64,000 nt of DNA, from positions 43,103,789-43,167,788 of the forward strand of contig NC_057719.1 of assembly GCF_004010195.1 (NCBI RefSeq), written 5' to 3'. Positions 1-64,000 of the stretch are shown piece by piece. Numbering within the stretch: the stretch's first letter is position 1; each line of letters starts with the position of its first letter. A program made the translations under genes and the position numbers. The notes beneath the pieces are model-generated. The model was given only the letters and a program-made list of their open reading frames with translations. It was not told the origin of the DNA and did no database searches. This DNA comes from Chiloscyllium plagiosum (lineage: Eukaryota).

Positions 1-179
1 TTGCTGGTAAGCACAGCAAGTCAGGCAGCATCCAAGGAACAGGAGAATCGACGTTTCGGGCATAAGCCCTTCATCAGGAATGAGGAATGAAGGGCTTATG
101 CCCGAAACGTCGATTCTCCTGTTCCTTGGATGCTGCCTGACCTGCTGTGCTTTACCAGCAACACATTTTCAGCTCTGAT
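1..179. mobile_element. Fold-back Penelope-derived terminal-repeat insertion (family A), cut by the window edge
   Basis: Inverted arms (1-~75 versus ~87-160) of the same repeat seen at 342-623. Intact hammerhead core on the minus arm. Confidence 0.8.
50..77 (-). ncRNA. Minimal type-I hammerhead ribozyme motif
   Basis: The minus strand reads CTGATGA-A-GGGC ttat GCCC-GAAAC-GTC. Confidence 0.75.
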
Positions 180-402
180 CCACTTAATGGTAAAGTCCGA
201 GGGAGTGTTGCTGAACAAAGAGACCTTGGAGTGCAGGTTCATAGCTCCTTGAAAGTGGAGTTGCAGATAGATAGAATAGTGAAAAAGGTGTTTGGTATGC
301 TTTTCTTTATTGGTCAGAATATTGAATACAGGAGTTGGGAGCTGAAAATGTGTTGCTGGAAAAGCGCAGCAGGTCAGGCAGCATCCAAGCAACAGGAGAA
401 TC

Positions 403-430
403 GACGTTTCGGGCATAAGCCCTTCTTCAG
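403..430 (-). ncRNA. Minimal type-I hammerhead ribozyme motif
   Basis: The minus strand reads ggattc-CTGAAGA-A-GGGC ttat GCCC-GAAAC-GTC-gattct. Stem I pairs at 5 of 6 positions. Confidence 0.75.
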
Positions 431-446
431 GAATCCTGAATGATTC

Positions 447-526
447 CTGAAGAAGGGTTTTTGCCCGAAACGTCGATTCTCCTGTTCCTTGGAGTTTCCT
501 GAAGAAGGGCTTATGCCCGAAATGTC
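447..526 (+). ncRNA. Tandem pair of minimal hammerhead motifs (447-474 and 499-526)
   Basis: CTGAAGA-A-GGGT tttt GCCC-GAAAC-GTC and CTGAAGA-A-GGGC ttat GCCC-GAAAT-GTC, 52 nt apart. Confidence 0.7.
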
Positions 527-1267
527 GATTCTCCTGTTCCTTGGATGCTGCCTGACCTGCTGCGCCTTTCCAGCAACACATTTTCAGCTCTGATCTCAAG
601 CATCTGCAGTCCTCACTTTCTCCTACAGGAGTTGGGAGGTCATGTTGTGGCTGTACAGGACATTGGTCAGGCCACTTGAATATGTTCAATAACCTAGCTT
701 CCACTGTCCTCTGGGGAAGAGGATTCCAGAGACTAACAGCCCTCTGAAAAGATAAATTCTTCCCCATCGCCATTTTAAATGGGAGATGCCTTTACTTTTA
801 AACTGTGCCCTTCATTCTGGATTCCTTTTTCTGAAGTCTGATGAGTATTGACGCAACTTGCAACCTTTCCTTGTTAAACAACGTCTTCAGCCTAGGAACC
901 AACCTAGTGAATCATCTCTGGACTACTTTCAATGCATGTATATCTATCATTAAATAAGGAGACAAAAACAGTATGCAGTACTCCAAGTGTGGTCTCACCA
1001 AAGCCTGACACAACTATAGCAAGGCTTCCCTACTTTTATACTCCATTCCTCTTGAATAAAGGCTAATGGTTCTTAAATACTAGTTTTACCATGTTAACTG
1101 TGTATAATTAATGATTTAGGGCACACAGATCCTTCAATCTCTCTTTGTTTATGTGTTATTCTGTTTTTCTACTCTGCCTGCTAAATTGTACAGCTTCACA
1201 TTCTCCCACATTATTCTCCATCTACCAAATACCTACTCACTCATTTAATATATATATATAAAATATA

Positions 1268-4657: not shown

Positions 4658-6092
4658 GTGGAGGCAACGGCCCAGCGGTATTAACCTAGATTATTAGTCC
4701 AAAAGTTGAGCTAATTTTCTAGGGACCTGGATTCAAATCCTGCCATGGCAGATCATGAAATTTGAATTCATTTTTTAAAAAATGTTTGGAATTAAGAATC
4801 TTCTGATGACTGCAACAATTGTCGATTGTCAGAGCAACTTATCTGGCTCACCAATGTCCTTCAGGGAAGGAAATCTGCCATCCTTACCTTGTCTGACCTA
4901 CATTCTGACTCCAGACTCTCAGCAATGTGGTTGACTCTCAACTGGCTTCTGAAATGACCAAGCAAGCCACTCCATTGTATCAATCAATATGAAGTCTCAA
5001 CAAAGAAACAAAACCAGACTGACCACCTAGCATCGACGTAGGCTTCGCAAAGACAAAGGCAGAAACAGCCCTGTCAACCCTGCAGAGCCCTCCTTACCAA
5101 CATCTGGAGGCTGGTGTCAAAATTGGGAGAACTGTCTCACAGACCAGTCAAACGTAAACTCTGGGGACATTTCGCTGAGCATCTCAGCCGGGCCCGCAGG
5201 GGCCTACCTGACCTCCCAGTCACCACCCATTTTAATTCCCCTTCCCACTCCCTCTCTGACATGACCATCCTCGGCCAGCGAATCAGACTGCAAATTGGAG
5301 GAACAGCACTTCATTTTCTGCCTGGGCAGCCTGCAACCCAAAGGACTCAACATTAGGTTCTCCAATTTTAAATAACCTCATTTCCTCAACCCCTGACTCC
5401 CTTTTCAGTCCCTCCCCCTCCCTTCCATTCCTCCGATCGACCCTTCCTTCCAGCTATCAACCGGATTCATTCCTCCCGGCGACCGACCAAGTCGTACCTT
5501 CTACCTGTGCTCACCTATCTCAACCTCACCACCCCACCTCTCTCCCTATCCAAAACCCTCCCCCACCCCCCTTTATCCGCAGCTCCACTTACATCCATCC
5601 CCAGTCCTGAAGAAGAGTTACATGTAAAACATTGACATCTCCACCTCCTGATGCTGCCTGGCTTGCTGTGTTCTTCCAGCCTCCTACCAGTCTACCTTGG
5701 ATTCCAGCATCTGCAGTTTTTTTGTATCTCACAGATAGTCAAGCAACATCCTGACATAGTCATCATCATGGAATCATAACCAATAGATAACATCCCAGAC
5801 AACACCACCACCATCCCTAGGTATGTCCTGTCCCACTGGCAGGATAGACCCAATAGAGGGAGCAGTACAGTGGTTTACAGTCAGGAGGGGGTTACCTTGG
5901 GAGTTCAGGTTAAACATGCGCAAGGAAACCTTCCGCTGATTACCACTTACCATCCTCCCTTGGCTAATGAATCAGTGCTCCTCCATGTTTAACAATACTT
6001 TGAGGAAACGCTGAGGGTAGCAAGTGCACACAATATACTCTGGGTGGAAGATTTCAATGTCCTCCACCAAAAGTGGTTTATTAGTAGCACTA
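4658..6092 (+). mobile_element. tRNA-like head + Deu-type domain contiguous with a LINE AP-endonuclease frame (split by a Penelope insertion)
   Basis: B-box-like ggattcaaatcc at ~4729. Deu-like core aatgtccttcagggaaggaaatctgcc...actccagac...gcaatgtggttgactctcaactg (~4853-4955). Then LTNIWRLVSKLGELSHR|KQHPDIVIIMES...WQDRPNRGSSTVVY...ITTYHPP...WVEDFNV. Confidence 0.7.
5152..5726 (+). mobile_element. Penelope-like element 3' fragment (GIY-YIG remnant + terminal repeat, family B)
   Basis: HFAEHLSRARRGLPDLPVTTHFNSPSHSLSDMTILG; pyrimidine-rich 3' region; decayed hammerhead at ~5607-5634. Imperfect TSD tctcacagaccagtcaa (5135-5151) and tctcacagatagtcaa (5727-5742). Confidence 0.85.
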
Positions 6093-7853: not shown

Positions 7854-8039
7854 GTAAGAAACTCGATGTATTCCATCAATATATTGTATCAATACTCAAC
7901 TTCACATTTATTTCAGCTTGCTCCTATTTTAAATATCTTCACTGAATTATCATTGCTAAGAGACATGCCATCAAAGCTCTTCAGCTTGCACTCAACAGAT
8001 ATAAGAATACACATTTCAAAGGGAACAGCAATTTATACA

Positions 8040-8931: not shown

Positions 8932-9374
8932 CTTCATTGGTCAGACCATTGAGTATAGGAGTTGGGACTTCATGTTGTAGCTGTACAGGACATTGGTGAG
9001 ACTGTTTTTAGAATACTGCACACAATTCTGGTCGCTGTACTATTGAAACATAGTCATTAAACTAGAATGGGTGCAGAAAAGATTTACAAGGATGTTGCCA
9101 GGACTGGAGGGTTTTGAGTTATAATGAGAAGCTGGATAGGCCGGGACTTTTCTCTCTAGAGTGTTAGGAAGCGAAGGGATGACCTTATAGAGCATATAAA
9201 ATCATGAGAGACATAGATAAAGTGAATAGCAAAGGTCTTTTCCTCCAGAGTAGGTGAATCCAAAACCAGAGGTTGTAAGTTTAATGTGAGAGGGGCAAGA
9301 TTTAAATGGGACCTGAGGGACAACTTCTTCACAAAAACAGTGGTGACTATATGGATTGAGCTGCCAGAGGAAGT

Positions 9375-9583
9375 GGACGAAAGTGGGTACTGCAGATGCT
9401 GAAGCTTAGAGTCAAGATTAGAATAGTGCTGGAAAAGCACACCAGGTCAGGCAGCATTCGAGCAGCAAGAAAATCGACGTTTCGGGCAGAAGCCCTTCAT
9501 TCATTCCTGATGAAGGGCTTTTGCCTGAAGCATTGATATTCCTGCTCCTCGAATGCTGCCTGACTTGTTGTGTTTTTCCAGCG
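9375..9583. mobile_element. Fold-back Penelope-derived insertion (family A-related)
   Basis: TSD agaggaagt at 9366-9374 and 9584-9592. Inverted arms around 9500. Partial or decayed hammerhead cores at 9476-9500 (-) and 9507-9534 (+). Confidence 0.82.
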
Positions 9584-9668
9584 AGAGGAAGTAGTATAGG
9601 CGATTACAATTTTAACATATAAAAAACATTTGGACAGGTACACGGATAGGAAAGGTTAAGAGGGTCAT

Positions 9669-10258: not shown

Positions 10259-11693
10259 TTCCATTTAGGAAACCTGGTCAACATGGACAGGTTGGACCGA
10301 AGGGTCTGTTTCCGTGATATATGACTCACTGATTACCAGCATGTCTTTTTAGCTTGGCAGCAGTATTCGTCAGGTGGAAAATGCCATTTGTGTTGCTACT
10401 GCATTGTAGCAAGGTGATATTATTAACTTGGCCTGTTGCCCCAAATTTTGGGATACCTTGCCCTTCTGAGCACTTTTAGGTTTAAAAGTAAGGATAATCA
10501 GTTGTTAGAAGTAAATGGTCGTTCAAAAAGTAAGAACTCCTATGTCATGGCATGGAACTGTTTTTTCTATAACCAGGTTCTTGATTTAATGTCTCATGCA
10601 TTTGTGACAGTGCAGGTTATATGTTCTGGAGTGGAGCTTGAACACCCAATCTTATGACTCTAAAGTAAACGTACTGCCATTGATTCAAAGTCCACATGAA
10701 TGGAAAAAAAATAACTTCACACTTTATTTAATTCATAAAGATGATGATTATTGTGCATTTGACACCTCATTTATGAAACTACAACATTGTACTGTTTAAC
10801 ATTTACTAATAAATGAGGACATACACACACTGGTACGGTCCAGTTCTGCCAGATCCAAAATAAATCCAGTTACGTGGAAGAGATTAAAAAGTTTACCAGG
10901 AGGTCAAAGCTAACATATAATGCCAGCGATAAGCTTTCTTATAGATCTAAATGCCACATCTAGGAAGGAGGTACAATCTAAAGTTGGTTTTCTCTGTATT
11001 GACACCTTAGGTAAATGCAGACTGTTTGAATAGGTTTTGAGATTTAACAGGGAATGTTAATTTATTTTAAGAAAGTGCCATCTTCAATGCCATTATTGTT
11101 TTTCTCCAGGAATATCCTGGAGATTAATCTTTAAATCCTGGCAATTGCAAGAAAATCCTGGGATCTAGCAACCATCAGTGAAACATTATAAGGCCTGTCT
11201 CCCACACCAATGGTTGGTCAGTATGGCAGATGCATCAATTTTGTGTATTGTGGACAAGACTCAGCACAAACTATGCCGTTAGATAGTTATGATATGACTA
11301 CAAGTGACCAGTGTTGGAGTAAAATGAGAGTGGAGAGAGCAAAATGGAGAAATAGTGAGATTGTAAGGCTCAGGAAGTTTGGAGGTTGGGAAGAATAATG
11401 CCAAGAAGCAATTCAAATACATGAATTGTTCATTTTAATGGTTGTATCTGTGAGAGAATATAGAGAAAGTAGCAAGGTAAGAATGTTGTCCGAAAACACA
11501 CAAGCTCTCTGTGAATTCAATTTGGATAACATTGAATTAAAAGTGCATAGCTGTCTGAATGAAAAGTAAATTTCATTAAATTTTATCCAACTGAATTACA
11601 GTTTTACAATTAACTAGTGCACCTTTCTTAATGTACAGGTGTTCACTGAGTTCTATTTAGAAACATCTCTGGTTTGTTCCTTTAAAAATGTAT

Positions 11694-12043
11694 GTGGCAC
11701 GGTGGCTCAGTGGTTAGCACTGCTGCCTCACAGCTCCAGGGACTGGGGTTCAGTTCCACCCTGGGGTGACAGTCTGTGTGGAGTTTACACATTCCCTGTG
11801 TCTGTATGGGTTTCCTCTGGGTGCTCCAGTTTCCTCTTGCATTTCAAAGCTGTGCAGGTTAGGTGGAATGGCCATGCTGAATTGCCCATGGTGTCCAGCT
11901 GTCTACAGTCTAGGTGGGTTAGCTATAAGAAATGCAGGATGGCAAGTTAGGGGGTGGGTCTGGGTAGGATGCTCTTCAGAGGATCAGTGTAGACTCGGGT
12001 GGAACGGCCTGCTTCTACGTTGTAAGGATTCTATGATTCCATG
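11694..12043 (+). mobile_element. tRNA-derived V-type SINE (HE1-like)
   Basis: ggcacggtggctcagtggttagcactgctgcctcacagc head, V-domain and gattctatgatt tail. Confidence 0.88.
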
Positions 12044-24308: not shown

Positions 24309-24374
24309 GTTTAAAGAAGTTTTCGTTCTTGGGATGTGGATGTCATTTGAATAGCTGCTGGTAATCATCCATCC

Positions 24375-24792
24375 CTGGTTAGAGATTTTTTTTTAAAACC
24401 TGCAGGTGCTGGAACCCAAGGTAGACAAGCAGGAGGCTGGGAGAACATAGCAAGCCAAGCAGCATCAGGAGGTGGAGAAGTCAACATTTCTGGTGTGCCT
24501 GCAGTTCAGGACTGGGGGTGGGTAGTAGGGGAACTGCAGTTAAAGCTGGTGGGGGGCAGGGTGGTGAGGTGGGGCTAGGTGAGGACAGGTAGAGGGTATG
24601 ACCTGGTTGGTCAATGGGAAGGATGCATCCAGTTGGTAGGTGGAGGATCACCTCACCAACCTGCTCCGCTATCCCCTTTAACTGCAGCTCCCCTTGCCCC
24701 CACCCCTACCCCCTGAAGAAGGGTTACACCCAAAACTTTGACTTGTCCACCTCCTAATGCTGCTGGCTTGCTGTGTTCTTCCAGCCTCCTGC
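24375..24792. mobile_element. Fold-back Penelope-derived insertion (family B)
   Basis: Inverted arms meeting near 24648; same repeat as 5450-5720. Flanks taatcatccatcc (24362-24374) and taaccatccatcc (24793-24805). Decayed hammerhead at 24713-24739. Confidence 0.78.
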
Positions 24793-25227
24793 TAACCATC
24801 CATCCTTAGCTGCTCTGAGAAGGTGGTAGACCTTTTGTATGAACCACAGGAGCAGTTTTATGCTACTGACCAATTGACAAGGCAGCTACTTGTCAACATT
24901 AATGTTTGGCTGGAGTTACGTAAAAGTAAGTTTTCCTTCCCTAAAGGATATAGGTGAACTTACTAAAAAATCAGCCAACGGAATGGTTGCTTTATTGATA
25001 TTTATTTCCAAATATTTAAAAACTGTATTTGAATTCTCAGCTGCAGTGGCAGGAAGTGAACTCCTGTTTGCTGAGTTGATACTATAGTTTCTGTACTGTA
25101 GTTTAATAATAGCCAATACACTACTGTAACCCCATGATATTTTGGGGGGTTCATTTAATTTGTGTCTAGTTCTTTACAATGTTAATGTGAATATTGTATG
25201 TGTTATATTGATACTTTGTCAATGCAG

Positions 25228-27050: not shown

Positions 27051-27066
27051 CCTCAGTGAGTCAGAG

Positions 27067-27160
27067 CATTCCTGATGAAGGGCTTATGCCTGAAATGTCA
27101 ACTCTCCTGCTCCTGAGATGCTGCCTGACATGCTATGCTTTTCCAGTGCCACACTTTTCA
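27067..27160 (+). mobile_element. Solo Penelope terminal-repeat fragment (family A) with a hammerhead-like core
   Basis: cattcCTGATGAagggcttatgcctGAAAtGTC followed by the family A downstream sequence. Confidence 0.75.
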
Positions 27161-27319
27161 ATTCTCATTAATAAGAACCAAGTAACACTAATTAATGCAC
27201 TATCAAGATAAGTCACTGATTTATTTTTTACTATTTTGTTTGCACCTTTTCAATGTCTTGTGAAGCCATTTAATAGTTTATGTATCAAGTGAAGATGTAT
27301 TCCTTTAATCCCAAATTTC

Positions 27320-28060: not shown

Positions 28061-28080
28061 GACCTTTGTGTCTCCAGGAT

Positions 28081-28200
28081 AATAGCTGAAAATGTGTTGC
28101 TGGAAAAGCGCAGCAGGTCAGGCAGCATCCAAGGAACAGGAGAATCGATGTTTCGGGCATGAGCTCTTCATCTCCAGCATCTGCAGCCCTCACTTTCTCC
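28081..28200. mobile_element. 120-bp Penelope-derived inverted insertion (family A)
   Basis: Perfect 12-bp TSD tgtctccaggat at 28069-28080 and 28201-28212. An inverted arm is joined to the direct tail. Confidence 0.85.
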
Positions 28201-28286
28201 TGTCTCCAGGATCACTAATGCACTTTAAGAAAACAGACAAGTTGAACTATAAGAAATGCCTTGATTTATTTTTGTTTGTTCAGAGG

Positions 28287-32690: not shown

Positions 32691-32777
32691 TTTTATTTTT
32701 CATAAGCTGTAGATGCTGCTGGCAAAGGCAGCATTTGTTGTCCATCCTTAATTGTCCTTGCCTGCTTGTCCTTGATG

Positions 32778-32934
32778 AAAAATGTGTTGCTGGAAAAGCG
32801 CAGAAGCCTTGAAGAAGGGCTTATGCCCGAAACGTCGATTCTCCTGCTCCTTGGATGCTGCCTGACCTGCTGCGCTTTTCCAGCAACACATTTTTCAGCT
32901 CTGATCTCCAGCATCTGCAGTCCTCACTTTCTCC
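32778..32934. mobile_element. Penelope-derived insertion with a short inverted arm (family A)
   Basis: TSD tgcttgtccttgatg (32763-32777) and tgtttatccttgatg (32935-32949). Hammerhead-like core at 32809-32836 with C3 changed to T. Confidence 0.83.
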
Positions 32935-33704
32935 TGTTTATCCTTGATGGTGAGCTGCCTTATTGAATTGCTGCAGTCTATGTGGCATAAATGCATCCAT
33001 TGTACTGCTGAGAAGCAAATATCAGGATTTTGACTCAGCAGCAGTAAGGGTACAGTAATGGTGTTCAAAGGCAGAATGCATTGTGACTTATGGGAAACTT
33101 GCAAGTTGAAGTGTCACTTGCACCTGCTGCTTTATGCTTCTGGCTGGTATGGGTTGTAAGGTGCAATCTCAGTAGGTTTGGTGAGTCGCTGCAGTGCATC
33201 TTGTACAGAACACATGCTGCTGCCACAGTATGGTGGTGGTGGAAGGAATGAATGTTGAGGCTGGTGGATGGAGTGCCAACCAAATGGGTTTGATCTGGAA
33301 TATGTTAAACTTCTGGAATGTGGTTAGAGCTGCACTTAATCGATCAAATGGAAAGTATTCCACTGCAATCCTGATTTGTCCCTTGTAATTTAATCTATTA
33401 CAGGGGAGGAACCGAGAGCTGTGCTGGTGAAGTGGGTCTGGGTGTCTTCAATAAACATGTGGAACCAGTCAGCATGGCTTTTGGATGACGTCACTGAGGG
33501 TCAGCAAGAAGATCAGGATAAATTCCAGATGTAACAATAAAGGAGTCAGAAGACATGCTTTGTTTTAATTCTTTCATAACTTTGCTAACACGTTAAGCTT
33601 GCTGTAAATTATGGGACAAGCTTTGGGGAATCAGGAGCTTAGTTGCTCATCTCAGAATTTACAACCTCTGACCTGCACTTGTAGTTGTTGTATTTATTTG
33701 GCTA

Positions 33705-34184
33705 GGCGAAAGTGAGGATTGCAGATGCTAGAGATCAGAATCAAGATTAGAGTGGTACTGGAAAAGCACAGCAGATCAGGCAGCATCCGAGGAGCAGGAA
33801 AATCGACGTTTCGGGCAAAAGTCCTTCATCAGGAATGAGGCAGAGAGCCTCCGAGGTGGAGAAATGAATGGGAGGGGTGGGGCTGGGGAGAAGGTAGCAA
33901 AGAGTGCAATAGATGGATGGACATGGGATGAAGGTGTTAGGTTGGAGAGGAGGGTGGAGCGGATAGGTGGGAAGGGAGATTGGCAGGTAGGACAGGTCAT
34001 GAGGATGGTGCTGAGCTGGCAGGTTGGGACTGGGGTAAGGGGGGGTGGGAATGAGGAAACTGGTGAAGTCCAAATTGATGCCTTGGGGTTGGAGTGTTCC
34101 GAGGCAGAAGATGAGGCGTTCTTCCTCCAGGCATCGGGTGGTGAGGGAGTGGCGGTGGAGGAAGCCCAGGACCTGCCTGTTCTC
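33705..34184 (-). mobile_element. Penelope-like element 3' end (GIY-YIG C-terminus + terminal repeat)
   Basis: QVLGFLH...TTRCLEEERLIFCLGTLQPQGINLDFTSF on the minus strand, followed by a pyrimidine-rich region, hammerhead and tail. Confidence 0.88.
33805..33832 (-). ncRNA. Hammerhead motif in a Penelope 3' terminal repeat (one stem II mismatch)
   Basis: The minus strand reads CTGATGA-A-GGAC tttt GCCC-GAAAC-GTC, downstream of the GIY-YIG C-terminus. Confidence 0.65.
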
Positions 34185-34282
34185 GGCCACTTCTGATCAA
34201 TGGTAATATGCAGAATATTAATAGTTAGGGATTCAGTGATGGTAATGCCATTGAATGTTCAGAGGAGATGGCTGAGACTCGG

Positions 34283-34294: not shown

Positions 34295-34439
34295 GATTCT
34301 GTAGGACTGCTGTGGACAGCTCTGCCTAACAGCCAAGGCATACTGGTGTTTTTTGCCGTCCCTGGCCAATTTATGTGGTGGAAATATTAGTTTAAAACCT
34401 TACAGAACACATACTTGTTAATATTTGGGAGTGGGAAGG

Positions 34440-35907: not shown

Positions 35908-38900
35908 ATGGCTAAGTGGCTTATTAAATGTACACCTGGAACATTAAGGGAAGTCATTCGCCTATTAAAAGGAAAAAAGTGCTTTCTAGTCTTAAAAAGG
36001 AAAGGGATGATATCGCTTTGTTGCAGGAAACCCATCTTGATGATGGGGAACACCTGAAACTATAACAGGGGGGTTATGACCGGGTATTCTTTTCATCCTT
36101 TACTACTAAAAGTAAGGGAGTAGTCCAGAAAAATCTTCCGTTCACATTATTAGAGCAGGTGAAAGATGAGCAGGGACGGTTTGTGATACTTAAAGCCCTG
36201 ATACATGGGGAGGAATATGGCATTTTAAATGTCTACTGTCCTCCGTCACATCCCCTCAAATTTAATTAGTGCTTTCTCTAAGTTGAGTGCTTTTGGAACA
36301 CGGCACATTATTATAGGGAGGGGTTTAATTGTCTTTTGGATCCGACAATGGACAGGATGCCTTGTGGGCCCCCAACTATTTCTTCGCAGGCCAAGCAGGT
36401 GGTTGACTTATGCGAGGAGTTGGGGCTGGTGGATATTTGGAGATGTCTTCACCCTACGGTCAGGGACTTCACCTTTTTTTCAAACCCACATAAATGTCAC
36501 GCAAGGATTGACCTCTTTCTGGCTCCCTCGGCCCTTCTGGATTTGATTATGGGTTGCAAAATTTGGAATATAGCTGTCTCTGATCATGCGGCAGTATATT
36601 TGGAGGTTAAGGCCAAGAGTGAAGGACTAGGTTTGCGGCATTGGCATTTGGACCCCTTTCTCCTTAAGGATTCCAAATTTGTGGACTACTTTTTGAAGGA
36701 GTTTCAGGAATTCTTGACTATCAACTCAGGCACGGCTAGTAGTCCGTCCATGCTATGGGAGACTGCTAAGGCCTTTGCTAGGAGATTAGCTATTTCCTAT
36801 TCGGCTAGCCGGAAACAACAGAAGGAGGAACAACAGCGTCTACTTGAGACGTGGTTGAAAGCCGCGGAGGCAGCACATTTTGCGCAGCCTTCGGTGATTA
36901 AGCTACAGCGGATCACAGCCCTTCGGGCTGCCTTGAATTCAATACTGACACAAAACGCAAAGAAAGAACTTGCTTTTGCTTGACAGAGGCTGTTCGAATA
37001 TGGGGATAGGCTAGGGAAATATTTAGCGTACCTGACTCAGAAAAAGTGTGCTTCCCAATCCATTACTGCAATCAGAGACAGCATCGTATCTTTTTACATA
37101 CGATGCTAAAAAGATTAATGAGGCTTTTCGGAGCTTTTACTCTGAATTGTATCAGTCTGAAGGTTGCGAAGATAGGAGGGCTAAAATGGAGACCTTTTTT
37201 AAGAACTTGGACCTCCCAGGGGTAACCTTGGAACAGGCCTCTCTCCTTAATGCCCCCTTGACAGTTCAGGAAATACAGGAGGCAGCTAGGCAACTTCAGA
37301 GTGGGAAAGCGCCTGGCCCTGATGGTCTTCTGGGTGAGTTTTATAAGGAGTTGATAGGGATTCTGTCAGGACTGATGTTGGAGATGTACAATCACTCCTA
37401 TATGCATGAATGTCTACCACCATCTTTGAGAGAAGCTAATATTTCCCTAATTCGTAAGAAGGGAAAGGTTCCTGAGGATTGTGCCTCATGCAGGCCCAGG
37501 TCCTCTAATAATATTAGAAGGTAGCTGAATGTGGTCCAAGTTTGTCAGCAACGATTGATTCAGGGGTTGGTGATTTCCTTAGATGCAGAGAAAGCATTTT
37601 ACCGGGTGGAATGGCTGTATCTTTTTTATTTCTTAGAACAGTTCGGATTGAGTGGAGTCTTTGCTCGGAGTGTGGAGGTTTTATATCGCCACCCTCTGGC
37701 TGCAGTCATCACCAATGGGGTGAAGTCTTGGAATTTTACGATTGGTTGGGGTAGTCACCTTCTCACCATTGTTGTTTACATTGGTGATAGAGCCGCTGGC
37801 AGAGGCTATTCATCAAAACGTCCACATAACTGCTCCGGAAGTGGGATCGAGGGCACACAAGATTACATTGTACGCGGAAAATGTCCTTCTGTTTTTATCG
37901 AACCCGATCACCTCCGTACCCCATTTGATACAATGTATCAATTCATTTGGGGCTATTTCTGGATATAAGATTAACTTTGCAAAATCAGAGGCAATGCCTT
38001 TGGGGAACCATAAGGATGTGCCAGAAGTTGAAGGTGGCTCTAAGTTCCCTTTTAAGTGGTCACGGGCAGGATTCCGATACCTTGGCATTTTTATTACCCC
38101 CAAGTTTGATCTGTTATTTCAGGCTAAGTTTGCTCACTTGCTCGACAATATTAGGCAGGATCTCCAGAGATGTGAGGCTCTTCCAATTTCATGGCGGGCC
38201 GAATATCTCTCATTAAGATGAATGTTCCTCCTCGTTTGCTTTATCCAATGCGTATGCTCTCTATAATGTCTCCCAGGTCAACACTGCAGAAACTTATGGG
38301 TTGGTTTAGTTCCTTTGTCTGGCATCGTGGGTGGCCCCTCATCAAACTTACTAAATTGCAGTTGCCTCAAGGAGTGGGGGGAGTTGATTTCCCAGACATC
38401 AGGAGGTATCAATTGAGTTCCCTGCTGTCCTTTGTCTGCGATCGGGAAGGTAACGATCCAAAACTCAATATGGCTGGATATTGAGGCCTCCCAAGCAAAG
38501 TGCCCTCTTATTAACCTAGTGTTCATGGATAAGATGAGGATAGTTATGGACCACTGCCGGAAAACCATTGTCATTAGTACAGTCAGGACTTGGAGGGTGA
38601 TGCGTCAGAGTGAGGGTGGTTTATCCAAGACATTGCCACTTACATCTATAGTTGGCATGCCAGGGTTCTGACCAGGGATGATGGACTCAGGGTTCCAACT
38701 ATGGGTAGCGAGAGGAATTTCTAGTTTGGGAGACTTGTTTGAGGGTGAGGTTATGATGTCTTTTGAGCAACTGAGCCGCAAATATGGGCTGCCCAGCAGA
38801 GACCTTTTCCATTTTTTTTCAGGTTAGGAATTTCATCCAGAAGAAGACTACGCTTCTCACTAAGCCCTATAAGCCCGATACAGAGAGGTTGTTGCTAGGT

Positions 38901-39578
38901 TCCACAATCACCCTTTCAGTTAGTGCCCTCTATCGCCTGCCTGGTGGCAGGGCCTGGCAGGATATTAACCGGTTATGTGAGGTCTGGGAGCAAGAGCTGG
39001 GAGTGGAGATCTGTTCTGAAACATGGGAGAACATATGGGAGAATACTCGAAAGATCTCAATCTGTAACAGGACATGCGCTAGAAAGTTAAAAGTTCTGCT
39101 CAGGGCTCATCTGGCACCAGACTGTCAGGCGAAGTTTTAAAAAGGGGCATCTTCAGTGTGCCCCAAATGTAAAATAAGTGTAGGTACTCTTACCCTTAGC
39201 TTCTGGACATGCCACAGGCTCCGTGTTTATTGGAGCGCTGTGGCGGGAGAGATAGGGAGGGGATTGAGGACTGAAATCAAAGTAGACCCGATATCTCTCC
39301 TCTTAGGTCTACCGAATTTACCATCTTTAGACAAGCATGGGAAGAAACTATTTAATATTCTTGCACACTGTGCACGGAAGAATATTCAGATGAACTGGGT
39401 GTCTGAGAACCCGCCGGGCTGGCTGGGCTGGCAGAAATTAATTATGGACCACATTCCCTTGGACTTTTTCACAAACATGGTGCATCACACAACAGACAAT
39501 TTTTATAAGTCATGGCAGCTTTACTTGAGTTATTTGGATATAGATTTATCAGTTATCTTAACTAGGGCATTTGTTTAA
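35908..39578 (+). pseudogene. L1-type ORF2 (AP endonuclease, reverse transcriptase, Cys knuckle), frameshifted
   Basis: WNIKG...LLQETHL, RIDLFL and SDHAAV (endonuclease); GKAPGPDG, ISLDAEKAF, SPLLF and YAEN in place of YADD (RT); CPKC...FWTC. Multiple stops and frameshifts, plus an apparent deletion near 37497. Confidence 0.9.
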
Positions 39579-46244: not shown

Positions 46245-46578
46245 GCTAAACCTATGCCCTCTAGTTCTGGACTCCCCCACCCCAGGGAAAAGACTTTGTC
46301 TATTTACCTTATCCATGCCCCTCATGATTTTATAAACCTCTAGAAGGTCACCCATCAGCCTCTGACACTCCAGGGAAAACAGCCGTAGCCTATTCAACCT
46401 CTCCCTATAGTTCAAATCCTCCAACCCTGGCAACATGCTTACAAATCTTTCCTGAACCCTTTCAACTTTCACAACATCCTTCCGATAGAAAGGAGGACAG
46501 AATTACATGCAATATTCCAAAAGTGGCCTAACCAATGTCCTGTACAGCCACAACATGTCCTCCCAACTCCTATACTCA
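46245..46578 (-). mobile_element. CR1 RT C-terminal fragment
   Basis: ERVQERFVSMLPGLEDLNYRERLNRL...GDLLEVYKIMRG. Confidence 0.85.
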
Positions 46579-46579
46579 C

Positions 46580-48830
46580 CAAAATGGAAGGACTTTTAGA
46601 GAATTATAACCATCACATCCACTATTTCTATCTGGCTTCTTCTTTTAGGGTGCTAAGATCGAAGCCATCAGGGTCAGGGTTAAGTGAGCAAAACTGAACA
46701 GTTTCCATTCCTACTTAGATGTTAGTAGATACCCCCTGTAGATCTTGAAGGCATATTCCAGCAGCAAACACAAGATAGTGTCAAAGACCATTAGTGTCAG
46801 AATGCAACATTGTTAACCCTATTGTGGATTTCAAACAGTTTAGATTTGTCTCATCATAGTTACCTTACTCATTGCTATATTGTTATGAAATGAAGACATC
46901 ATACTGAATAGCTCAACTGGCAACTAATTTTCGCCAGCGGCTTAAATAGACCATGCCGTCACACATAGACAAATGTCTTCGTGAAATTGACGAAGTCAAC
47001 GTATATGGGTCCCTTTGTTCATATAAATTTTTCTAAACAGCTGTCAAACTAAAATGGGCATGTCAAATCTACAAATAGACTTCTAAAATAACACAGATTC
47101 CAGACAGATGTGTTCAACTAAGATCTTCAATCTGACAAGGGCAACATGGGTAAATACGTTTCCCACAATACTCAGCAGGGAAATGTGTTGATCCATGTTG
47201 CAATTACTGCAGTTGCCACTGTTCTTGTGATTAGTCATAGAGTCACAGAGATGTACAGCTTGGAAACAGACCCTTTGGTCCAACCCGTCCATGCGGACCA
47301 GATATCCCAACCCAATCTAGGCTCACCTGCCAGCACCCGGCCCATATCCCTCCAAACCCTTCCTATTCATATACCCATCCACATGCCTCTTAAATGTTGC
47401 AAATGTACTAGTCTCCACCATTTCCTCTGGCAGCTCTTGTGTATCCTATGGCACTGTCGCCCACCATCCAGTAAAGCCAGAGATGTTCATGTGACTACTG
47501 CACAAGCTTCAATTTCTCATGCTTCACGTATTCAGATGGTATAGCATCGGTTTCTGGAGCTTTGCCCATGGGAAGAAGGTCAATAGTCCAAGGATGTGCA
47601 AGTTAGGTGAATAGGCCACGCTAAATTTCCCGCCTCAGGCGACTGACTGTGTGGAGTTTGCACGTTCTCCCCGTGTCTGCGTGGGTTTCCTCCGGGGGCT
47701 CCGGTTTCCTCCCACAGTCCAAAGATGTGCAGGTCAGGTGAATTGGCCATGCTAAATTGCCCGTAGTGTTAGGTAAAGGGGTAAATGTAGGGGTATGGGG
47801 GGTTACGCTTCGGCGGGTCGGTGTGGACTTGTTGGGCCGAAGGGCCTGTTTCCACACTGTAAGTAATCTAATCTAATCTAAATTACCCTGCAGTGTCCAG
47901 GGATATATAGGTTAGGTGCCTTAGCCATGGGAAATGCAGTGTTATAGGGATAGGGTCTGGGTGGGATGCTCTTCGAAGGGCCATGCAGACTTATTGGGCC
48001 GATGGGCTGCTTCCACACTGTAGGGATTCTATGATTCTATGAAGGTGAATAGTTCTACCAAACTTTCCACTGTGATTTGATAGCCTGCTCTCCCATGTCT
48101 GGCAAACTTTCTCTGGTGGCTAGAGCTTCCTTTATGACAGTGTTTTCTCTAAAGTACAACACAAGATAATGTTACATCCAATTCTCCACTTTGTTGCAGG
48201 TGATGACCTCCCCTGCCTTTGTTTTCAATGCAGCTGGTTTCTGTACCGATGGACTGGTACCTTTTAGGTCTGTTTATGCATACCCCTGATATTTGCTGCA
48301 TCAAAGACCAACTGGATATTCTGGAAGATTTGTAACTAATAGTTACTAGTAGAGCCTCTAGCAGTTTGTTTGATTAAACTTCAATTTGCTCTTAGTGCAT
48401 TCAGACTTTTATCATTCAGGTTCCTATTGTAACTACTGAGAGCCAATCACCAATAATGACTCCATCACAGTTATGTTAGCCTTTATGTAGGCATTACTTT
48501 TTGCCCTTGCTTCTCAAATGTTGTGTTTATTGTAAATGGAATTGAAGTGTGTTCCTTTAAGCTTCTACACACTATCTGGAAATGTTGGACAGCATCTGTT
48601 CAATTGAATCACAGAATTTTGTTTTATCTGGTAGATAGAATGGCTGATATTGATACAAGGACAGCATTTTTGCTTTGAATGAAAATTTTTCAAATGTTGC
48701 ACCCTCACCTGAGTGCTGTGGCAGCTGCATGTACTGAGAGTTCTGTTCAGAGAGTCATATCTGGTGATGGTTAGATTTAGCTGGTACCAATGCCGTGATC
48801 TTGCATGTCTCCAGGACATCTATGGCATGG
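46580..48830 (-). mobile_element. Old RTE-clade LINE remnant with nested CR1 (47234-47435) and SINEs
   Basis: HKNSGNCSNCN...ISLLSIVGNVFTHVALVRLKILVEHICLES matches the RTE-type K.GD..DC.NYRGISLLS..GK.F..V.L.RL......PES region. Boundaries are approximate. Confidence 0.62.
47584..48041 (+). mobile_element. Two nested 5'-truncated V-type SINEs (young copy ~47629-47880 inside an older copy)
   Basis: The inner copy keeps many CpGs and ends in (aatct)n. The host is interrupted at ctaaatt, which recurs at about 47878, and ends gattctatgattctatg. Confidence 0.82.
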
Positions 48831-53465: not shown

Positions 53466-53952
53466 TGATCATCGTTTGAGAGACCAATGATAGCCAAGTT
53501 TCAAGGGGAACTCTCCTAGTCTTTGAAGAACAGCATGGGATCTTCTACATTCACCTGAGAAGCTAAACTAATGCTGGTTAATGAATTGAGCAGGTGAAAA
53601 AGAATGAATAAATAAACAAGCCTACATTCTCAGTGCTTTACAATGAATGCCTTTATTGACCAGAACCTCAGTCAAGACTTCCCAAACTGTGGGTCACAAT
53701 GTGAAGAAGTTTGGGAAATTTGGCCCAGTGTTAACATCTTGCCAACTTCAGGAATACGGCTCTCCCTCAGTAATGAAATGAACTGTCAACCAAGTTTATG
53801 TACTTAATATCAGTGATTTTTGTTGGGGTACAAGTTTGTTAGAATATTATAAATAGATGTTCACATTAAACATCTTTATATTATTCAGGAAACTCCTCCA
53901 TATTGCCTCCTTCACTTCTAAACACAACGTATCAATACAATGGAGGAAACAG

Positions 53953-54031
53953 GCTTATGCCCGAAACGTCGATTCTCTTGCTCCTCGGATGCTGCCTGGC
54001 CTGCTGTGTTTTTCCAGCACCACATATTTCA
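53953..54031 (+). mobile_element. 79-bp Penelope terminal-repeat fragment (family A)
   Basis: Perfect 16-bp TSD acaatggaggaaacag at 53937-53952 and 54032-54047. Confidence 0.85.
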
Positions 54032-54520
54032 ACAATGGAGGAAACAGTCAACATTGATGCCAATGGAGGCACATTCAGACAATCTCTTAGTATAATTCAA
54101 TTTTGTTTTCATACAATCATTAAACACTATTTCTCTCCTCAGTTGTATTTGTTCCAGATTTTAACAGTAAAGCCATTCACGAAATTATTTGTTCATGTTG
54201 GTAATTCAGAAAGCATAAAGAAACGTTACTTTAACCAAGGAAGATAAAATATTAACATTAAAAGTCTTTATCTCACCATTCAATAATATTGTGATAGTAT
54301 TGTCTTCATATTGCATTGCATTGTCTGAATCAGTGTACAATTTGCAAAATGTGGTTCATCCAATCATTAGAATTACCACTGTGTGCTAAATTGTATTCTT
54401 GTGCAGCTTTCATATGAATTTTCTATTCCTACCTTCATATGCATTTCCTTGTAGTAGTCTTTCAATACCTTAGAATAGTTTTTACAGGAAATGTTTGAAA
54501 TAAAAAGACAATTTTTAAAA

Positions 54521-55924: not shown

Positions 55925-56767
55925 TTAGGATCCTACAAGAATTTCCATGATATGGTCCAGGTCACTCAAATCTACTCTGCAGATCTGAATGGTGTTCACT
56001 GACGCAGAGTTGCATAACTGAAAGGGTTTTGAAACATCATCCACGCTAGCTGGTGGTGTTCTAGCAGGTGTTAATGGAAGTAAGCACAGATCTGAGTCAT
56101 ACATGGACGTGTCAATGTCTTCAAATATGTCATCAAAAGCAAGATCTGTTAGGTAACTCGTTGAATTTGTGATTTCAAAAGAGCCAAACACAGTTTCTGC
56201 AGGCCTAGTTTCTTGTGGTCTGTCTGCCAAAGAAATGTCTGAATTTGGGTCATCTTCACCTGCAGGTGCAGGACAAGGAGATGGGCTAATATCCTCCATG
56301 AAATCCAAATCTTTAAGGATTGATGAAATGGCGGATGACATGTCATCATCTGAAACAACTACTAGAGAGTTCTCAATCTGATTTTCTGAAAAATCTGAAG
56401 AAATATTCAAATCCAGAGAACTGTTTTGAATGGTTGATGGTGTTCCAGTTAATTCAATACTGGCCTGAGATGCTGTATATGAGTCTGGAACTGGGCTTGT
56501 TCCACTGCAGATATTAGATCCTTCTTGACTGCTTTCTTGCCTCATTTCCTCCTGGATCTGCCGAACAGTATTTGCGATAAGGACAGAACGGTGCAAGTTT
56601 GGTTCCACCAGCATCCGACAGCTTTGCAATTTGATAAGGCACATATTAAGTACCAACTGTCTCTGCAAAGTGTAGGGCAGCCCTGGGTTAGAATCAAAGG
56701 CACCAGGAACACCAGCCATATTTTCTTCGTAATCACTAAGCTTGCGCTTCAGTCCTTTAGCCAACAT
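55925..56767 (-). CDS. CDCA4: SERTA-domain protein, CDCA4/TRIP-Br3 type (CDCA4 or a CDCA4-like paralog), 280 aa, single coding exon
   Basis: Intact ORF. N-terminal GLKRK motif, SERTA domain (YTLQRQLVLNMCLIKLQSCRMLVEPNLHRSVLIANTVRQIQEEM), acidic DDIFEDIDTSMYD box and C-terminal DLSDLDHIMEILVGS, all typical of SERTAD/CDCA4. MLVEPNL.RSVLIANTVRQIQEEM is CDCA4-like rather than SERTAD2-like. The family call is firm; exact orthology is not. Confidence 0.85.
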   Translation of the reverse strand: MLAKGLKRKLSDYEENMAGVPGAFDSNPGLPYTLQRQLVLNMCLIKLQSCRMLVEPNLHRSVLIANTVRQIQEEMRQESSQEGSNICSGTSPVPDSYTASQASIELTGTPSTIQNSSLDLNISSDFSENQIENSLVVVSDDDMSSAISSILKDLDFMEDISPSPCPAPAGEDDPNSDISLADRPQETRPAETVFGSFEITNSTSYLTDLAFDDIFEDIDTSMYDSDLCLLPLTPARTPPASVDDVSKPFQLCNSASVNTIQICRVDLSDLDHIMEILVGS

Positions 56768-56771
56768 GAAT

Positions 56772-56798
56772 CTAGAACATAGAAGAAAAAAGTTGAGT
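56772..56798 (-). promoter_or_regulatory. 3' splice acceptor 4 nt upstream of the SERTA-gene ATG
   Basis: The minus strand reads a T-rich tract ending ...ttcttctatgttctag|attcATG. This implies an upstream non-coding exon, the usual SERTAD/CDCA4 gene layout; that exon was not identified in the window. Confidence 0.75.
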
Positions 56799-57967
56799 AT
56801 CTATTCCAACACATAATATAAATGAGTGTGTAGCTATCCTGTTGTTTAGGTACCTGAAATTATAAAATAGTGCACAGTAAACTAATATTTGAATTCACAG
56901 CATTCTTGTTTATTAATATTTAAGACAATTTTCAGGTCACAAATCTGAAACATTACCTCGGTTTCTTTATTGACAGATTCTGCCTGACCTCAGAGTATTT
57001 CCAGCATTTTCTATTAGATTTAAGAGAATAACTAACTTTCTCTGCCATGGAAGCACTAAAGAAAACTTTACAGATTTGTGCTCCCATCAATAAGCGTCTC
57101 CCAACAAGTGAGTAAGGGACACAACTGCAGTTCATAAATGTTTCTGACAACTGAAACTAATTGATATGTATCCCAAATTGCAAAGCACATTGGAATAGTA
57201 CAACTCAAAATTAATACCCTTTTTTGAATTCAGTCTATAATTTTCCAGATTCTGAGCCACTAAATCCAGGGGGTTACAAACCCTTCTATTCACAGAAATC
57301 ATTTCTGGGAATCCATATCCTAACTATCAACTGTCACCTTCTTCAAAAGGATATCAGTGTTTTGATTAGTAAACAACAACAAAAATAACATGCTAGAACA
57401 TCAGAAGATGTAGAAATGTGATCACACAGCTGAAATTTGATGACCTTGCAGATCCTTTAAGAGCAAGAGAGAGTTCAGTTTGAAAACCGCTAATCTACTC
57501 TTTCCCACTAATATTGTGAAAGACCTAATTCATGTTAACTGATTTTCTTGTACTCTCTTGAAAGATCCTTCACTGAGCCTATTTAGTGGCTGTAAGAGAC
57601 ATTCAAACCCAAAGAAAGCTAGTAGACTAGTTTTTGCTACATCAAGGTATTTTCCTGCTGTCACATGCAATAACCTTCTGGTTATAATCATCAGAACATT
57701 GTAGAAGTTAGCAGTGACTTATATAATGTTACCTTGCCATTATTCATGTTTAAGTTTTTGCCATGAGAACTTTATAAGTGTTTACCATAGTACAGTAGCA
57801 GCATGATCCAGAAAGTACCATTTGCATTTATTTGAAATGAATTTATCATAAGAAATGTAGGAATGTATAATCTGCACCTGAGTTTGCTAACAGCTCTCAC
57901 AGTTTAGCACTAGCAGCAAGTTACCAACATTCAAAATTGATGACAAGGTGAAGATCAACATACCACT

Positions 57968-61200: not shown

Positions 61201-62555
61201 TACATATGCTCCAGCACTTGCTGCATCCCTAGCCAAGCAATTCCAATACAGTTATAACACTGGCACTTCCCTGACAATGTAGAAAATTGACCAGATATAT
61301 CCTGTAGACAAAAAGCAGGAAGAAGTCAGTCCAACTAATTATTCTCCCATCAGTCTATTTATCATCAGTAAAATAATGGATGGTGTTATCAAAAATGCTA
61401 TCGAGCAGCACCTGCTTAGCAATAACCTGCTCAGTGACACTCTGGGTTCCGCCAGGGCCACTCAGGTCCTGACCTCATTATAGCCTTGGTTCAAACATGG
61501 ACAAAAAAAGCTGAAGTCCAGAGGTGACGTGAGAGTGACAGCCCTGGACATGAAGGCTGCATATGACCAACTGAGGCATCAAGGAGCCCTATCAAAATTG
61601 GAATCAATGGGTATCAGGGGCAAACTCTCTGCTGGTTGGAATCATACTTGGCACATAGGAAGACAGTTGTGATGATTGAAGGTCAGTCATCTCAGCTTCA
61701 GGACATCTCTGCAGGAGTTTCTCAGGATAGTGTCCTAGGCCCAACCATCTTCAGTTACTTCATCAATGACCTTCCCTCCATCAGAAGGTCAGAAGTGTGA
61801 ATGATCACTGAGGATTGATCAATGTACAGTACCATTCACAACACCTCAGATACTGAAGCAGACCATATTCAAATGCAACAAGACCTGAACAATATCCAGG
61901 TTTGGGCTGACATTCACACTGCACAAACGTCAAACAATGACTGACTATCTCCAATAGGACACAATGTAACCACTGCCCCTTGAAATTCAATGGCGCCACC
62001 ACCACTGAATCCCCTACCAGCAACATCCTGGGGATTGCCATTGACCTGAAATTGAACTGTACTCGCCATATAAATACAGTGGCTACAAGGGCTAGGAGTA
62101 CCACAGTGCGTAACTCACCTCCTGACTCCCTGTTCACTAGCTGCAAGGCACAAGTTAGGAGTGAAACAAAGCTTGCTTGGATGCGTGCCACTCCAACAAC
62201 ATTCAAGAAGCTTGACATCATTCAGGACAACGAGGTAAAAACCCACCGACTCCCACAGCTACCTGGATTACAGCTCTTCCCACCCTACCTCTTGCAAAAA
62301 TGCCATCCCGTATTCCCAATTCCTCCGCCTCCGCCGTATCTGCTCCCAGAAGGAGCGGTTCCACCATAGAACACACCAGATGGCCTCCTTCTTTAGAGAC
62401 CGCAATTTCCCTTCCCACGTGGTTAAAGATGCCCTCCAACGCATCTCATCCACATCCCGCAATTCCGCCCTCAGACTCAACCCCTCCAACCGCAACAAGG
62501 ACAGAACCCCCCTGCTCCTCACCTTCCACCCTACCAACCTCCGCATAAACCAAAT

Positions 62556-63083
62556 NNNNNNNNNNNNNNNNNNNNNNNNNNNNNNNNNNNNNNNNNNNNN
62601 NNNNNNNNNNNNNNNNNNNNNNNNNNNNNNNNNNNNNNNNNNNNNNNNNNNNNNNNNNNNNNNNNNNNNNNNNNNNNNNNNNNNNNNNNNNNNNNNNNNN
62701 NNNNNNNNNNNNNNNNNNNNNNNNNNNNNNNNNNNNNNNNNNNNNNNNNNNNNNNNNNNNNNNNNNNNNNNNNNNNNNNNNNNNNNNNNNNNNNNNNNNN
62801 NNNNNNNNNNNNNNNNNNNNNNNNNNNNNNNNNNNNNNNNNNNNNNNNNNNNNNNNNNNNNNNNNNNNNNNNNNNNNNNNNNNNNNNNNNNNNNNNNNNN
62901 NNNNNNNNNNNNNNNNNNNNNNNNNNNNNNNNNNNNNNNNNNNNNNNNNNNNNNNNNNNNNNNNNNNNNNNNNNNNNNNNNNNNNNNNNNNNNNNNNNNN
63001 NNNNNNNNNNNNNNNNNNNNNNNNNNNNNNNNNNNNNNNNNNNNNNNNNNNNNNNNNNNNNNNNNNNNNNNNNNNNNNNNNNN
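62556..63083. other. Assembly gap (528 N)
   Basis: Run of N. Confidence 1.
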
Positions 63084-63183
63084 TTAGTGGTGCTGGAAGA
63101 GCACAGCAATTCAGGCTACTCTCTCCCCACCCCCACCCTCCTCTAGCTTATCTCTCCAAGCTTCAGGCTCTCTGCCTTTATTC

Positions 63184-63211
63184 CTGATGAAGGGCTTTTG
63201 CCCGAAACGTC
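63184..63211 (+). ncRNA. Minimal type-I hammerhead motif in a Penelope terminal repeat
   Basis: CTGATGA-A-GGGC tttt GCCC-GAAAC-GTC, inside the TSD-bounded insertion that also encodes Penelope RT sequence. Confidence 0.78.
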
Positions 63212-64000
63212 GATTTTGCCTGTCCTCGGATGCTGCCTGAATTGCTGTGCTCTTCCAGCACCACTGATCCAGAATCATTCAGGACAAAGCAGCCCGCTTG
63301 ATTGGCACCACGGCCACAAACATCCACTCCCTCCATCACTGATGTTCAGTCACAATGTGTACTATCCACAAGGTGCACTGCAGAAATTCACCAAAGAACC
63401 TTCTAAACCCATGACGACTTCCCTTTAGAAGGACAAGAGCATCAGATTCATAGGAACACCACCATCTGCAAGGTTCCCTCCAAGCCACTGACCATCCCGC
63501 TTTGGAAATATATCGCCATTCTTTCAGTGTCGCTATGTAAAAATTCTAGAATTCTCTCCCTAACAACATTGTAGGTCTACCAATGGCATGTAGACTGCAG
63601 CAGTTCAAGGAGGCAGCTCACCACCACTTTCTCAAGGGCAATTAGGGAGAGCATTATACACTAGCCAGCCAGCGATGCCCATATCCCATGAGAAAATTAA
63701 AACAAATCTAAGCAATATTTTTGCAACAGTATATGGTAGGAAACACCTGAAAAACTGAATCAGATGTTTAGTTTCTGAAATGAGGGTCAGTGGCTGCAGT
63801 TCTAAGGCTGTGAGGAATGAATATCGAATTGTTCTTTATTTTTAAAACTCAATGTACAGGCCACATGTTGGACTTCTCTGATTTCTATGTCAACTAAAGA
63901 GCCTTAGTGATCACTGAAAGCAACCTTGTAAAAGGAATTTTGACCAACCAAAGATGTCAACAGTGAATTTAGTTTCCTTGTTCTTCTTTTCAAATATTAG

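Follow-up and report, generated by a model that had tools for sequence, protein, structure and literature searches.

The window, a 64-kb stretch of shark (Chiloscyllium plagiosum) DNA, contains 16 hammerhead-bearing arms at 11 loci, which belong to two families, A and B. A profile made from the in-window copies was run back over the window and recovered 18 segments, namely these 16 arms and two tail-only pieces (32774-32805 and 63086-63116). No further family was found in the window by this profile. The features are as follows.

1..180, no single strand: head-to-head family A pair, left end cut by the window; minus arm with a perfect core (50-77), plus arm (~90-180) beginning inside the core; predicted long hairpin, helix II probability 0.
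327..638, no single strand: family A insertion; minus arm with core 403-430 and a short tail, plus cores 447-474 and 499-526, the first a partial copy in a 52-nt tandem with the second, a long-tailed plus arm; 15-bp target duplication at 327-341 and 624-638.
5078..5372, plus strand: C-terminus of a family B GIY-YIG endonuclease, decayed, in two frames (tblastn E 6e-16 to P0010).
5373..5720, plus strand: family B pLTR with a long tail; dead hammerhead at 5607-5633, G12 lost, helix II broken.
9366..9592, no single strand: family A head-to-head pair; long-tailed minus arm beginning inside the core, decayed plus core (9507-9534) with a short tail; 9-bp target duplication at 9366 and 9584.
24366..24805, no single strand: family B head-to-head pair with dead cores at ~24483-24509 (minus) and 24713-24739 (plus); target duplication of 9 bp (24366 and 24797); the arms continue past the motif on its upstream side by 60-200 bases.
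27067..27165, plus strand: solo family A stub beginning 5 bases ahead of C3; its core boxes are intact and it carries three CpG transitions; a target duplication was looked for here and none was found.
28069..28212, no single strand: family A stub; minus arm from G5 (core remnant 28147-28172) and a tail-only plus piece; 12-bp target duplication.
32769..32949, no single strand: family A stub with a long tail; inverted tail piece and an arm (32809-32836) from ~U4-G5; target duplication of at least 9 bp.
33703..34194, minus strand: 5'-truncated family A element with GIY-YIG C-terminus (34187-34023), pLTR, hammerhead (33805-33832) and long tail.
53937..54047, plus strand: solo family A stub beginning inside helix II (53953); 16-bp target duplication at 53937 and 54032.
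62217..63287, plus strand: family A insertion in a LINE remnant, with RT thumb (62239-62553), N gap, inverted tail piece (63084-63116), pLTR and hammerhead (63184-63211); 14-bp target duplication at 62217-62230 and 63274-63287.

We searched the window with a structural descriptor (CTGANGA, 0-1 base, helix II of at least 4 pairs, GAAA-N-N-T-H). Six arms, all of family A, matched without core mismatch: 50-77 and 403-430 on the minus strand, and 447-474, 499-526, 27072-27099 and 63184-63211 on the plus strand. Dinucleotide shuffles (n = 60) gave a mean of 0.03 matches and a maximum of 1. The remaining 10 of the 16 arms fail the descriptor. The complete CTGANGA...GAAACGTCG is retained in the copies at 50, 403, 447 and 63184, the four that an earlier note on this DNA had called intact. 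All six matches have a bulge of one base and a G10.1-C11.1 pair, confirming the extra A that the note placed between A9 and helix II. Its reduction of stem III to an ACGT palindrome (15.1-16.1, without loop III) is likewise borne out, the palindrome being unaltered in 9 of 13 family A arms. Four further copies had been called near-intact, and the repeat is present at each. Those at 499 and 27072 pass the descriptor, but the copy at 32809 has T for C3, at a junction, and helix II of the 33805 copy contains an A·C mismatch. This mismatch is private to the copy, as 1263 of 1337 RNA reads carry the pairing base at 33822. Every position cited in the note, including the decayed ones, contains the repeat, and its count of more than a dozen cores or remnants agrees with the 16 arms of the profile. 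None of the Rfam hammerhead families matched at gathering thresholds in the 64 kb; the shark copies show that Rfam misses such hammerheads.

RT or GIY-YIG coding adjoins the hammerhead at three loci (5607, 33805 and 63184). The note had listed the last two, correctly, and had missed the first. GIY-YIG coding ends 235 bases upstream of the hammerhead at 5607 and ~190 bases upstream at 33805, where the C-terminus matches P0001 (tblastn E 3e-15). At 63184 the link to RT spans a 528-N gap (62556-63083), and one 14-bp target duplication encloses both sides. Chiloscyllium punctatum proteins that combine RVT_1 and GIY-YIG domains share 87-91% identity with the RT fragment at this locus (P0001: 91%). 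Pfam did not recognise the short RT and endonuclease fragments of the window, and their identity came through these relatives. The order of RT followed by a C-terminal GIY-YIG is seen as fragments in the window and entire in P0001 and P0004. Relatives, including P0001, also have a CX4CxxC linker; the corresponding stretch of the window falls in the N gap. A CX2-5CxxC linker between RT and endonuclease is given as a mark of Neptune/Nematis in PMC8557442. The elements are likely Neptune-type, as judged by the linker motif of relatives, which is common to Nematis as well.

The earlier note had also proposed compensatory changes between the two families. For family A, ATTC/GATT in helix I is not a 4-bp stem: it forms two pairs, a U·U mismatch (2.3-1.3) and one pair, with a predicted probability of 0.03-0.6. 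Because of this U·U, the difference from A to B is one of mismatch to pair and not a compensatory change. All three family B copies are dead, with G12 lost at 5607 and 24713 and the box and helix II wrecked at 24482. All three have T at position 17 (U17), so that the triplet is GTT and not GTC. GGGT/ACCC is found only at 24721-24731, in a copy whose helix I 5' strand is CCCC, and AGTC/GACT, with four helix I pairs, only in the dead copy at 24482. The covariation read from family B was thus assembled from separate dead copies. With family B stems scattered and dead, covariation in the window reduces to one helix II pair in one dead copy, and the claim from two families is weak within this window.

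Across families of other organisms, covariation of helix I does hold. Pairs 2.1-1.1, 2.2-1.2 and 2.3-1.3 are Watson-Crick in 26, 29 and 27 of 46 collapsed motifs, compared to 15, 14 and 13 of 46 in shuffled controls, and the observed level was reached in at most 1 of 5000. Helix I was left out of the search pattern that collected these motifs. Among metagenome motifs, PLE coding was found near 3 of 58 well-paired loci and 0 of 59 others; with so few coding neighbours and flanks of at most 1.5 kb, the PLE origin of these motifs is mostly assumed.

We next consider whether the dispersed motifs could be working ribozymes, selected by the host to cut its transcripts, intronic or otherwise. Six arms retain core boxes and helix II, there is one same-strand tandem, and RNA reads contain the family (2962 of 12.96 million). 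This reading is nevertheless very improbable. In addition to the 10 arms that fail the descriptor, three of the four perfect cores lie in predicted long hairpins formed by inverted pairs. In the predicted fold, antisense arms pair with the whole of the cores at 50 and 403, and 63184 is the sole perfect core free of such pairing. Free monomers are predicted to misfold into an alternative UGAUG/CGUCG helix (helix I probability 0.03). For 447/499, the only same-strand tandem able to dimerise in cis, the dimer drawn without helix I has a predicted -10.9 vs a minimum of -24.9 kcal/mol. Minimal motifs in the literature are described as cutting weakly or only with protein. Read ends do not pile up in one single-cell poly(A) run, although a library of this type could not reveal RNA ends. 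Core changes occur at 8 of 78 CpG bases and 1 of 52 other bases (Fisher p = 0.085). As this excess is not significant, neutral evolution of the cores is suggested only. Descriptor density (6 per 63.5 kb, about 95 per Mb) and the contigs matching one copy in two public runs (65,205 and 102,327) make a very high motif number in the genome plausible by extrapolation. The very large population claimed in the note is plausible as a number of motifs but overstated as ribozymes, since most arms are core-truncated, mutated or antisense-paired.

Target duplications of 9-16 bp were found at 7 of 10 tested loci and none at the other three. AGGA/TCCT lies inside six of the seven duplications, compared to a window background of 7-15% each; any 4-mer reached 6/7 in 6 of 20,000 random sets (corrected 3e-4). 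Similarity of the target to tail RNA, considered as a cause of site choice, was seen by eye at 2 of 7 loci. In all five complete inverted pairs, one tail is long and the other short. The 3' ends fall at two sites ~35-40 bases apart, with long arms ending 117-122 and short arms 68-89 bases past the first base of helix II (end points picked by eye). At the other end, family A arms mostly begin near C3 (11 of 13 between about -8 and +10), and none of the 13 begins at the cut site; the three family B arms all start clearly upstream of the motif. Among the 5'-side loose ends in public runs, those with the best support fall at -3 to -5 and have unrelated flanks (agreement about 0.3). Part of the -4 edge in reads is, however, a difference between subfamilies, since the loose-end consensus of the RNA run at this point is element sequence. 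Low read depth upstream of the edge comes partly from pLTR divergence. In the public runs, one side of the opposite-strand joints lies at -4 to -8 in 3/3 of those listed, and RNA reads over the core occur in both orientations (1147 vs 869).

A separate non-autonomous family, SINE- or MITE-like and with short masters of its own, could in principle account for the 90-130-base stubs or whole hairpins. The TTAT-loop subfamily (nine arms) appears in the window as stubs only, and Cervera and de la Pena (2014; PMC4209133) include SINE among their keywords and describe mostly single motifs. We find this improbable: inverted junctions in the window are all different, two tail subfamilies yield the same kind of junction, stubs have no common upstream flank, and motif and tail continue into pLTR and ORF at 33805 and 63184. 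Instead, we are confident that the repeats derive from the ends of two or more families of Penelope-like retrotransposons, likely Neptune-type, with the known minimal hammerhead. They were likely laid down by target-primed reverse transcription and are now likely decaying without function.

For these retrotransposon ends we propose the following mechanism. The element's protein would nick both DNA strands 9-16 bases apart, favouring sites that contain AGGA/TCCT. cDNA may be primed at two internal sites, ~80 and ~120 bases past the start of helix II. The template would be uncleaved RNA, because copies retain the motif and none begins at the cut site. cDNA synthesis would end at helix I or immediately ahead of it, the most likely reason being that the RNA starts at this point, and the cDNA would then join the flank or fold back into an inverted arm. 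Selection on the ribozyme would be limited to active master elements, where it may cut as a dimer through ACGU or with the aid of the element's protein. Inserted stubs would lose it via truncation, CpG change or antisense pairing.

For the 5' edge, it is possible, though short of probable, that it reflects the endonuclease cutting its own preferred site (TCCT, -2 to +2 of C3) or a TCAT/ATGA palindrome fold-back, instead of the RNA start. AGGA/TCCT in 6/7 duplications fits this, the junctions at 50/87 and 9476/9507 can be read as TCAT/ATGA fold-back with slips of 7 and 4 bases, and PMC3846280 interprets palindromic junctions as self-priming. However, the place of AGGA/TCCT inside the duplications shifts by several bases, solo stubs with unrelated flanks likewise begin at -3 to -5, and some families of other organisms without a TCCT-type sequence also diverge 0-15 bases upstream of C3. 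This alternative touches the 5' edge only and is compatible with the rest of our explanation. A further reading, of fairly low probability, is that each stub is a complete cDNA copy of the 5' end of the element, so that the stubs map its transcription start. RNA would begin at the A (helix I base 2.4) of an initiator-like TCATTCC (A) or CCAGTCC (B), and the ribozyme would be its first 32 bases. By removing the cap, the cut would act as a switch between the messenger and template roles of the RNA. The endonuclease would favour an AGGA/TCCT site that the element has at the same spot. Helix I would be short and its U·U tolerated because it doubles as initiator. An initiator at -4 as a general rule was not supported: it fits 5 of 60 well-paired motifs of other organisms, with ~3 expected by a hand estimate from base composition, which confines the idea to the shark families. 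The 5' edges in other organisms are mixed, some families diverging 0-15 bases upstream of C3 and others sharing 40-220 bases. A splice acceptor was rejected as source of the edge, since the 63184 copy has its closest good AG at ~-19, whereas the edge is at -4.

The note was right to identify the repeats as minimal type-I hammerheads of Penelope terminal repeats, a kind already described by Cervera and de la Pena (PMC4209133), who place min-HHR in pLTRs of metazoan Penelope-like elements, with copy numbers of 4,000 in coelacanth and 9,000 in Xenopus and a helix I of 4-5 bp (2 bp in Drosophila virilis). As described there, min-HHR share with the shark copies the core boxes, the extra base 9/10.1, G10.1-C11.1 and a palindromic 15.2-16.2 without loop III; helix I also seems to be short in both. 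Truncated solo copies prevail in both, and both include opposite-strand pairs. The paper gives each genome several families that covary and copy numbers in the thousands, a picture that the shark plausibly fits. The U·U of family A and the U17 of family B differ, and the shark density, if typical, would mean far more copies than in those genomes. Sharks are not named in the passages of that paper used here; its alignments or the species table of a 2026 preprint may list shark motifs.

Endonuclease-bearing PLEs, as described in PMC8557442 and PMC3846280, share 5' truncation, an adjacent inverted copy, a one-arm tail (30-40 bp), target duplications (8-10 bp there) and palindromic junctions. The shark units differ in being only 80-300 bases long, in 5' ends piled at the ribozyme front edge and in target duplications of up to 16 bp sharing AGGA/TCCT. 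For the Poseidon element PAc of Anolis (Frangieh 2024, PMC11167929), RT is reported to start in vitro 111-118 bases after the start of helix II. Two internal RT starts defining the tail, nicking and extension of both strands, uncleaved RNA as main template and no reads from the cut site match the shark picture as far as that account goes. PAc differs in its clade (the shark elements being Neptune-type by linker), its ATT target preference and an ORF that runs from helix II. Non-LTR retrozymes (Li, Clavereau and Pollet 2026, 10.64898/2026.07.22.740005), for which one chondrichthyan genome was screened with a positive outcome, share type I hammerheads of PLE pLTR origin. They are described as head-to-tail arrays with a motif in each unit, whereas shark copies are dispersed or head-to-head; no head-to-tail units each with a complete motif were found in the window, where 447/499 is a partial 52-base tandem.

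Taken together, the shark repeats are a further example of the class described in 2014, probably with an unusually high copy number. The sharp 5' edge at helix I, the lack of cut-site starts and the possible AGGA/TCCT preference offer inexpensive, testable ways into the copying of Penelope elements and the job of their hammerheads. If the transcription-start reading is true, it would bear on what Penelope hammerheads do, and hundreds of thousands of shark stubs would be a genome-wide readout of the Penelope cycle.

Sequence comparison recovered the repeat at each position given in the earlier note, and a profile built from the window copies delimited 18 segments at 11 loci: 13 family A arms (an arm being one hammerhead-bearing copy, named by its start), 3 family B arms and 2 tail-only pieces. 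A structural descriptor (CTGANGA, 0–1 base, helix II of at least 4 pairs, GAAA-N-N-T-H) matched six arms, in which the core boxes are unbroken and helix II has 4 pairs; 60 shuffles of the window averaged 0.03 matches. The motif is real, and its naming as a minimal hammerhead repeat is correct. Four arms (50, 403, 447 and 63184) are perfect through GAAACGTCG. Rfam recognised no hammerheads within the 64-kb window.

Other features of the window are as follows.
55925-56800, minus strand: a 291-aa frame, still intact, that carries a SERTA motif (Pfam E 7e-18) and is presumably CDCA4-like; the 53953 stub (a short end piece) lies ~1.9 kb downstream, antisense to it
34422-39578, plus strand: decayed element with ORF1-like and endonuclease/RT-like frames, which we take to be L1-like, its start separated by about 230 bases from the 33805 element, which lies on the opposite strand
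1264-1576, 11693-12043, 46246-46578 and 47231-48043: further dispersed repeats of ~300 bases, the first presumably a shark SINE

The ORF at 62239-62553 is 87–91% identical to Chiloscyllium punctatum proteins that carry an RVT_1 domain, a C-terminal GIY-YIG domain and a CX4CxxC linker, the last of which marks the Neptune and Nematis clades (PMC8557442). The DNA thus comes from an animal resembling a bamboo shark. The end of GIY-YIG coding sequence lies directly upstream of the hammerheads at 33805 and 5607, and a single target duplication brackets an RT piece, an N gap and the 63184 motif. Exact target duplications of 9–16 bp were found at 7 of 10 loci tested. All five complete inverted pairs (two arms on opposite strands) are head to head, each joining a long-tail arm, ending 117–122 bases from the helix II start, to a short-tail arm, ending at 68–89 bases (profile, ends picked by eye). 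These arms agree with the Penelope tail described in PMC8557442 and PMC3846280, and the two tail ends with the two internal RT starts in PMC11167929 (PAc element of Anolis). Head-to-head pairs 10–110 bases apart also occur in contigs of other organisms (L016:1501-1564, L038:1501-1601, L030:1403-1577).

In 11 of 13 family A arms the 5' start falls within about -8 to +10 of core base C3 (three offsets were read by eye, since the reference copy carries a private change), while none of the 13 starts at the cut site. Therefore, uncleaved RNA appears to be the template, with cDNA stopping at helix I. In contigs of two public runs, the best-supported 5' loose ends among those listed lie at 33835-33837 (-3 to -5) with unrelated flanks, a subfamily difference contributing to the -4 peak, and all three opposite-strand joints listed have one side at -4 to -8.

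We favour the start of the element RNA at helix I as the source of this edge, because both families carry YYANWYY, the initiator consensus, with its A at -4, and because internal priming in the upstream pLTR (Penelope terminal repeat) would produce stubs of just this kind. However, among 60 motifs of other organisms the initiator fits only 5, family B arms extend upstream of the motif, and in Drosophila virilis an intron ending at helix I is preceded by the start at a distance of 46 bases. A rival source is self-nicking, or else fold-back, at the position of the edge, as the element carries TCCT at -2 to +2 and AGGA/TCCT lies inside 6 of 7 target duplications, a small sample of seven sites that includes all six of family A:
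327, 9366, 28069, 32769, 53937 and 62217: family A target duplications with AGGA or TCCT

Any 4-mer equalled this count in 6 of 20,000 random sets, and the sharing across family A possibly reflects an endonuclease preference. At the 403/447 junction (431-446), G replaces C just before ATTCC in both arms; this G may derive from a cap or may distinguish a subfamily.

Covariation between the two families, as claimed in the earlier note, has weaker support in the window than stated, its paired variants being drawn from separate family B copies: the helix II and helix I variants sit in different ones. None of the three is intact (G12 is missing in 5607 and 24713, and 24482 is wrecked), and position 17 is T in all. 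Family A ATTC/GATT is not a full helix I, since it contains a U·U mismatch. In a scan of one sixty-fourth of a metagenome collection, with helix I absent from the search pattern, 117 loci were identified, carrying 116 distinct motifs. At least 4 helix II pairs form in 60 of these motifs, compared to 7.4 after interior shuffling. Multi-family covariation held for helix I pairs 1, 2 and 3, which are Watson-Crick in 26, 29 and 27 of 46 motifs (well-paired set, near-identical collapsed), with at most 1 in 5000 column shuffles as high, although kinship is ignored and these are not true probabilities. It did not extend to pairs 4 and 5, which showed no Watson-Crick excess over column shuffles in these 46 motifs. 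As helix I covariation and helix II pairing both exceed shuffles, the minimal hammerhead class is a conserved fold, in agreement with Cervera and de la Pena (PMC4209133), whose motifs have the same palindrome and extra base, likewise occur in opposite-strand pairs and number in the thousands.

An unusual variant with G at position 17 (GTG triplet), helix I often slipped by one or two bases, occurs in 11 of the 60 well-paired metagenome motifs (L004, L006, L019, L020, L048, L050, L063, L065, L079 and others).

The window copies are probably not working. The descriptor fails in 10 of 16 arms. In predicted folds, the perfect cores 50 and 403 pair fully with their own antisense arms, arm 447 keeps helix II and loses helix I, and free monomers with U7 favour an alternative helix. 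The only same-strand tandem is 447/499. Changes in the 3' core affect 8 of 78 CpG bases compared to 1 of 52 other bases (p = 0.085). RNA reads from one public run map in both orientations and 98% continue into unlike sequence, as expected for passengers in host transcripts. Class members described in print either show weak cutting as dimers (PMC4209133) or depend on the element's protein (PMC11167929).

A literature search, covering papers without their supplements, found no shark report of these motifs, no link between the 5' edge and transcription start and, in the portions seen, no Neptune target preference. Tandem forms were screened for in one chondrichthyan genome, according to a 2026 preprint (10.64898/2026.07.22.740005). 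Minimal Penelope hammerheads have been in print as a kind since 2014, and the window adds a further member. Extrapolated to a genome that we take to be multi-gigabase, the window's descriptor density (~95 per Mb) would mean a few hundred thousand descriptor matches.
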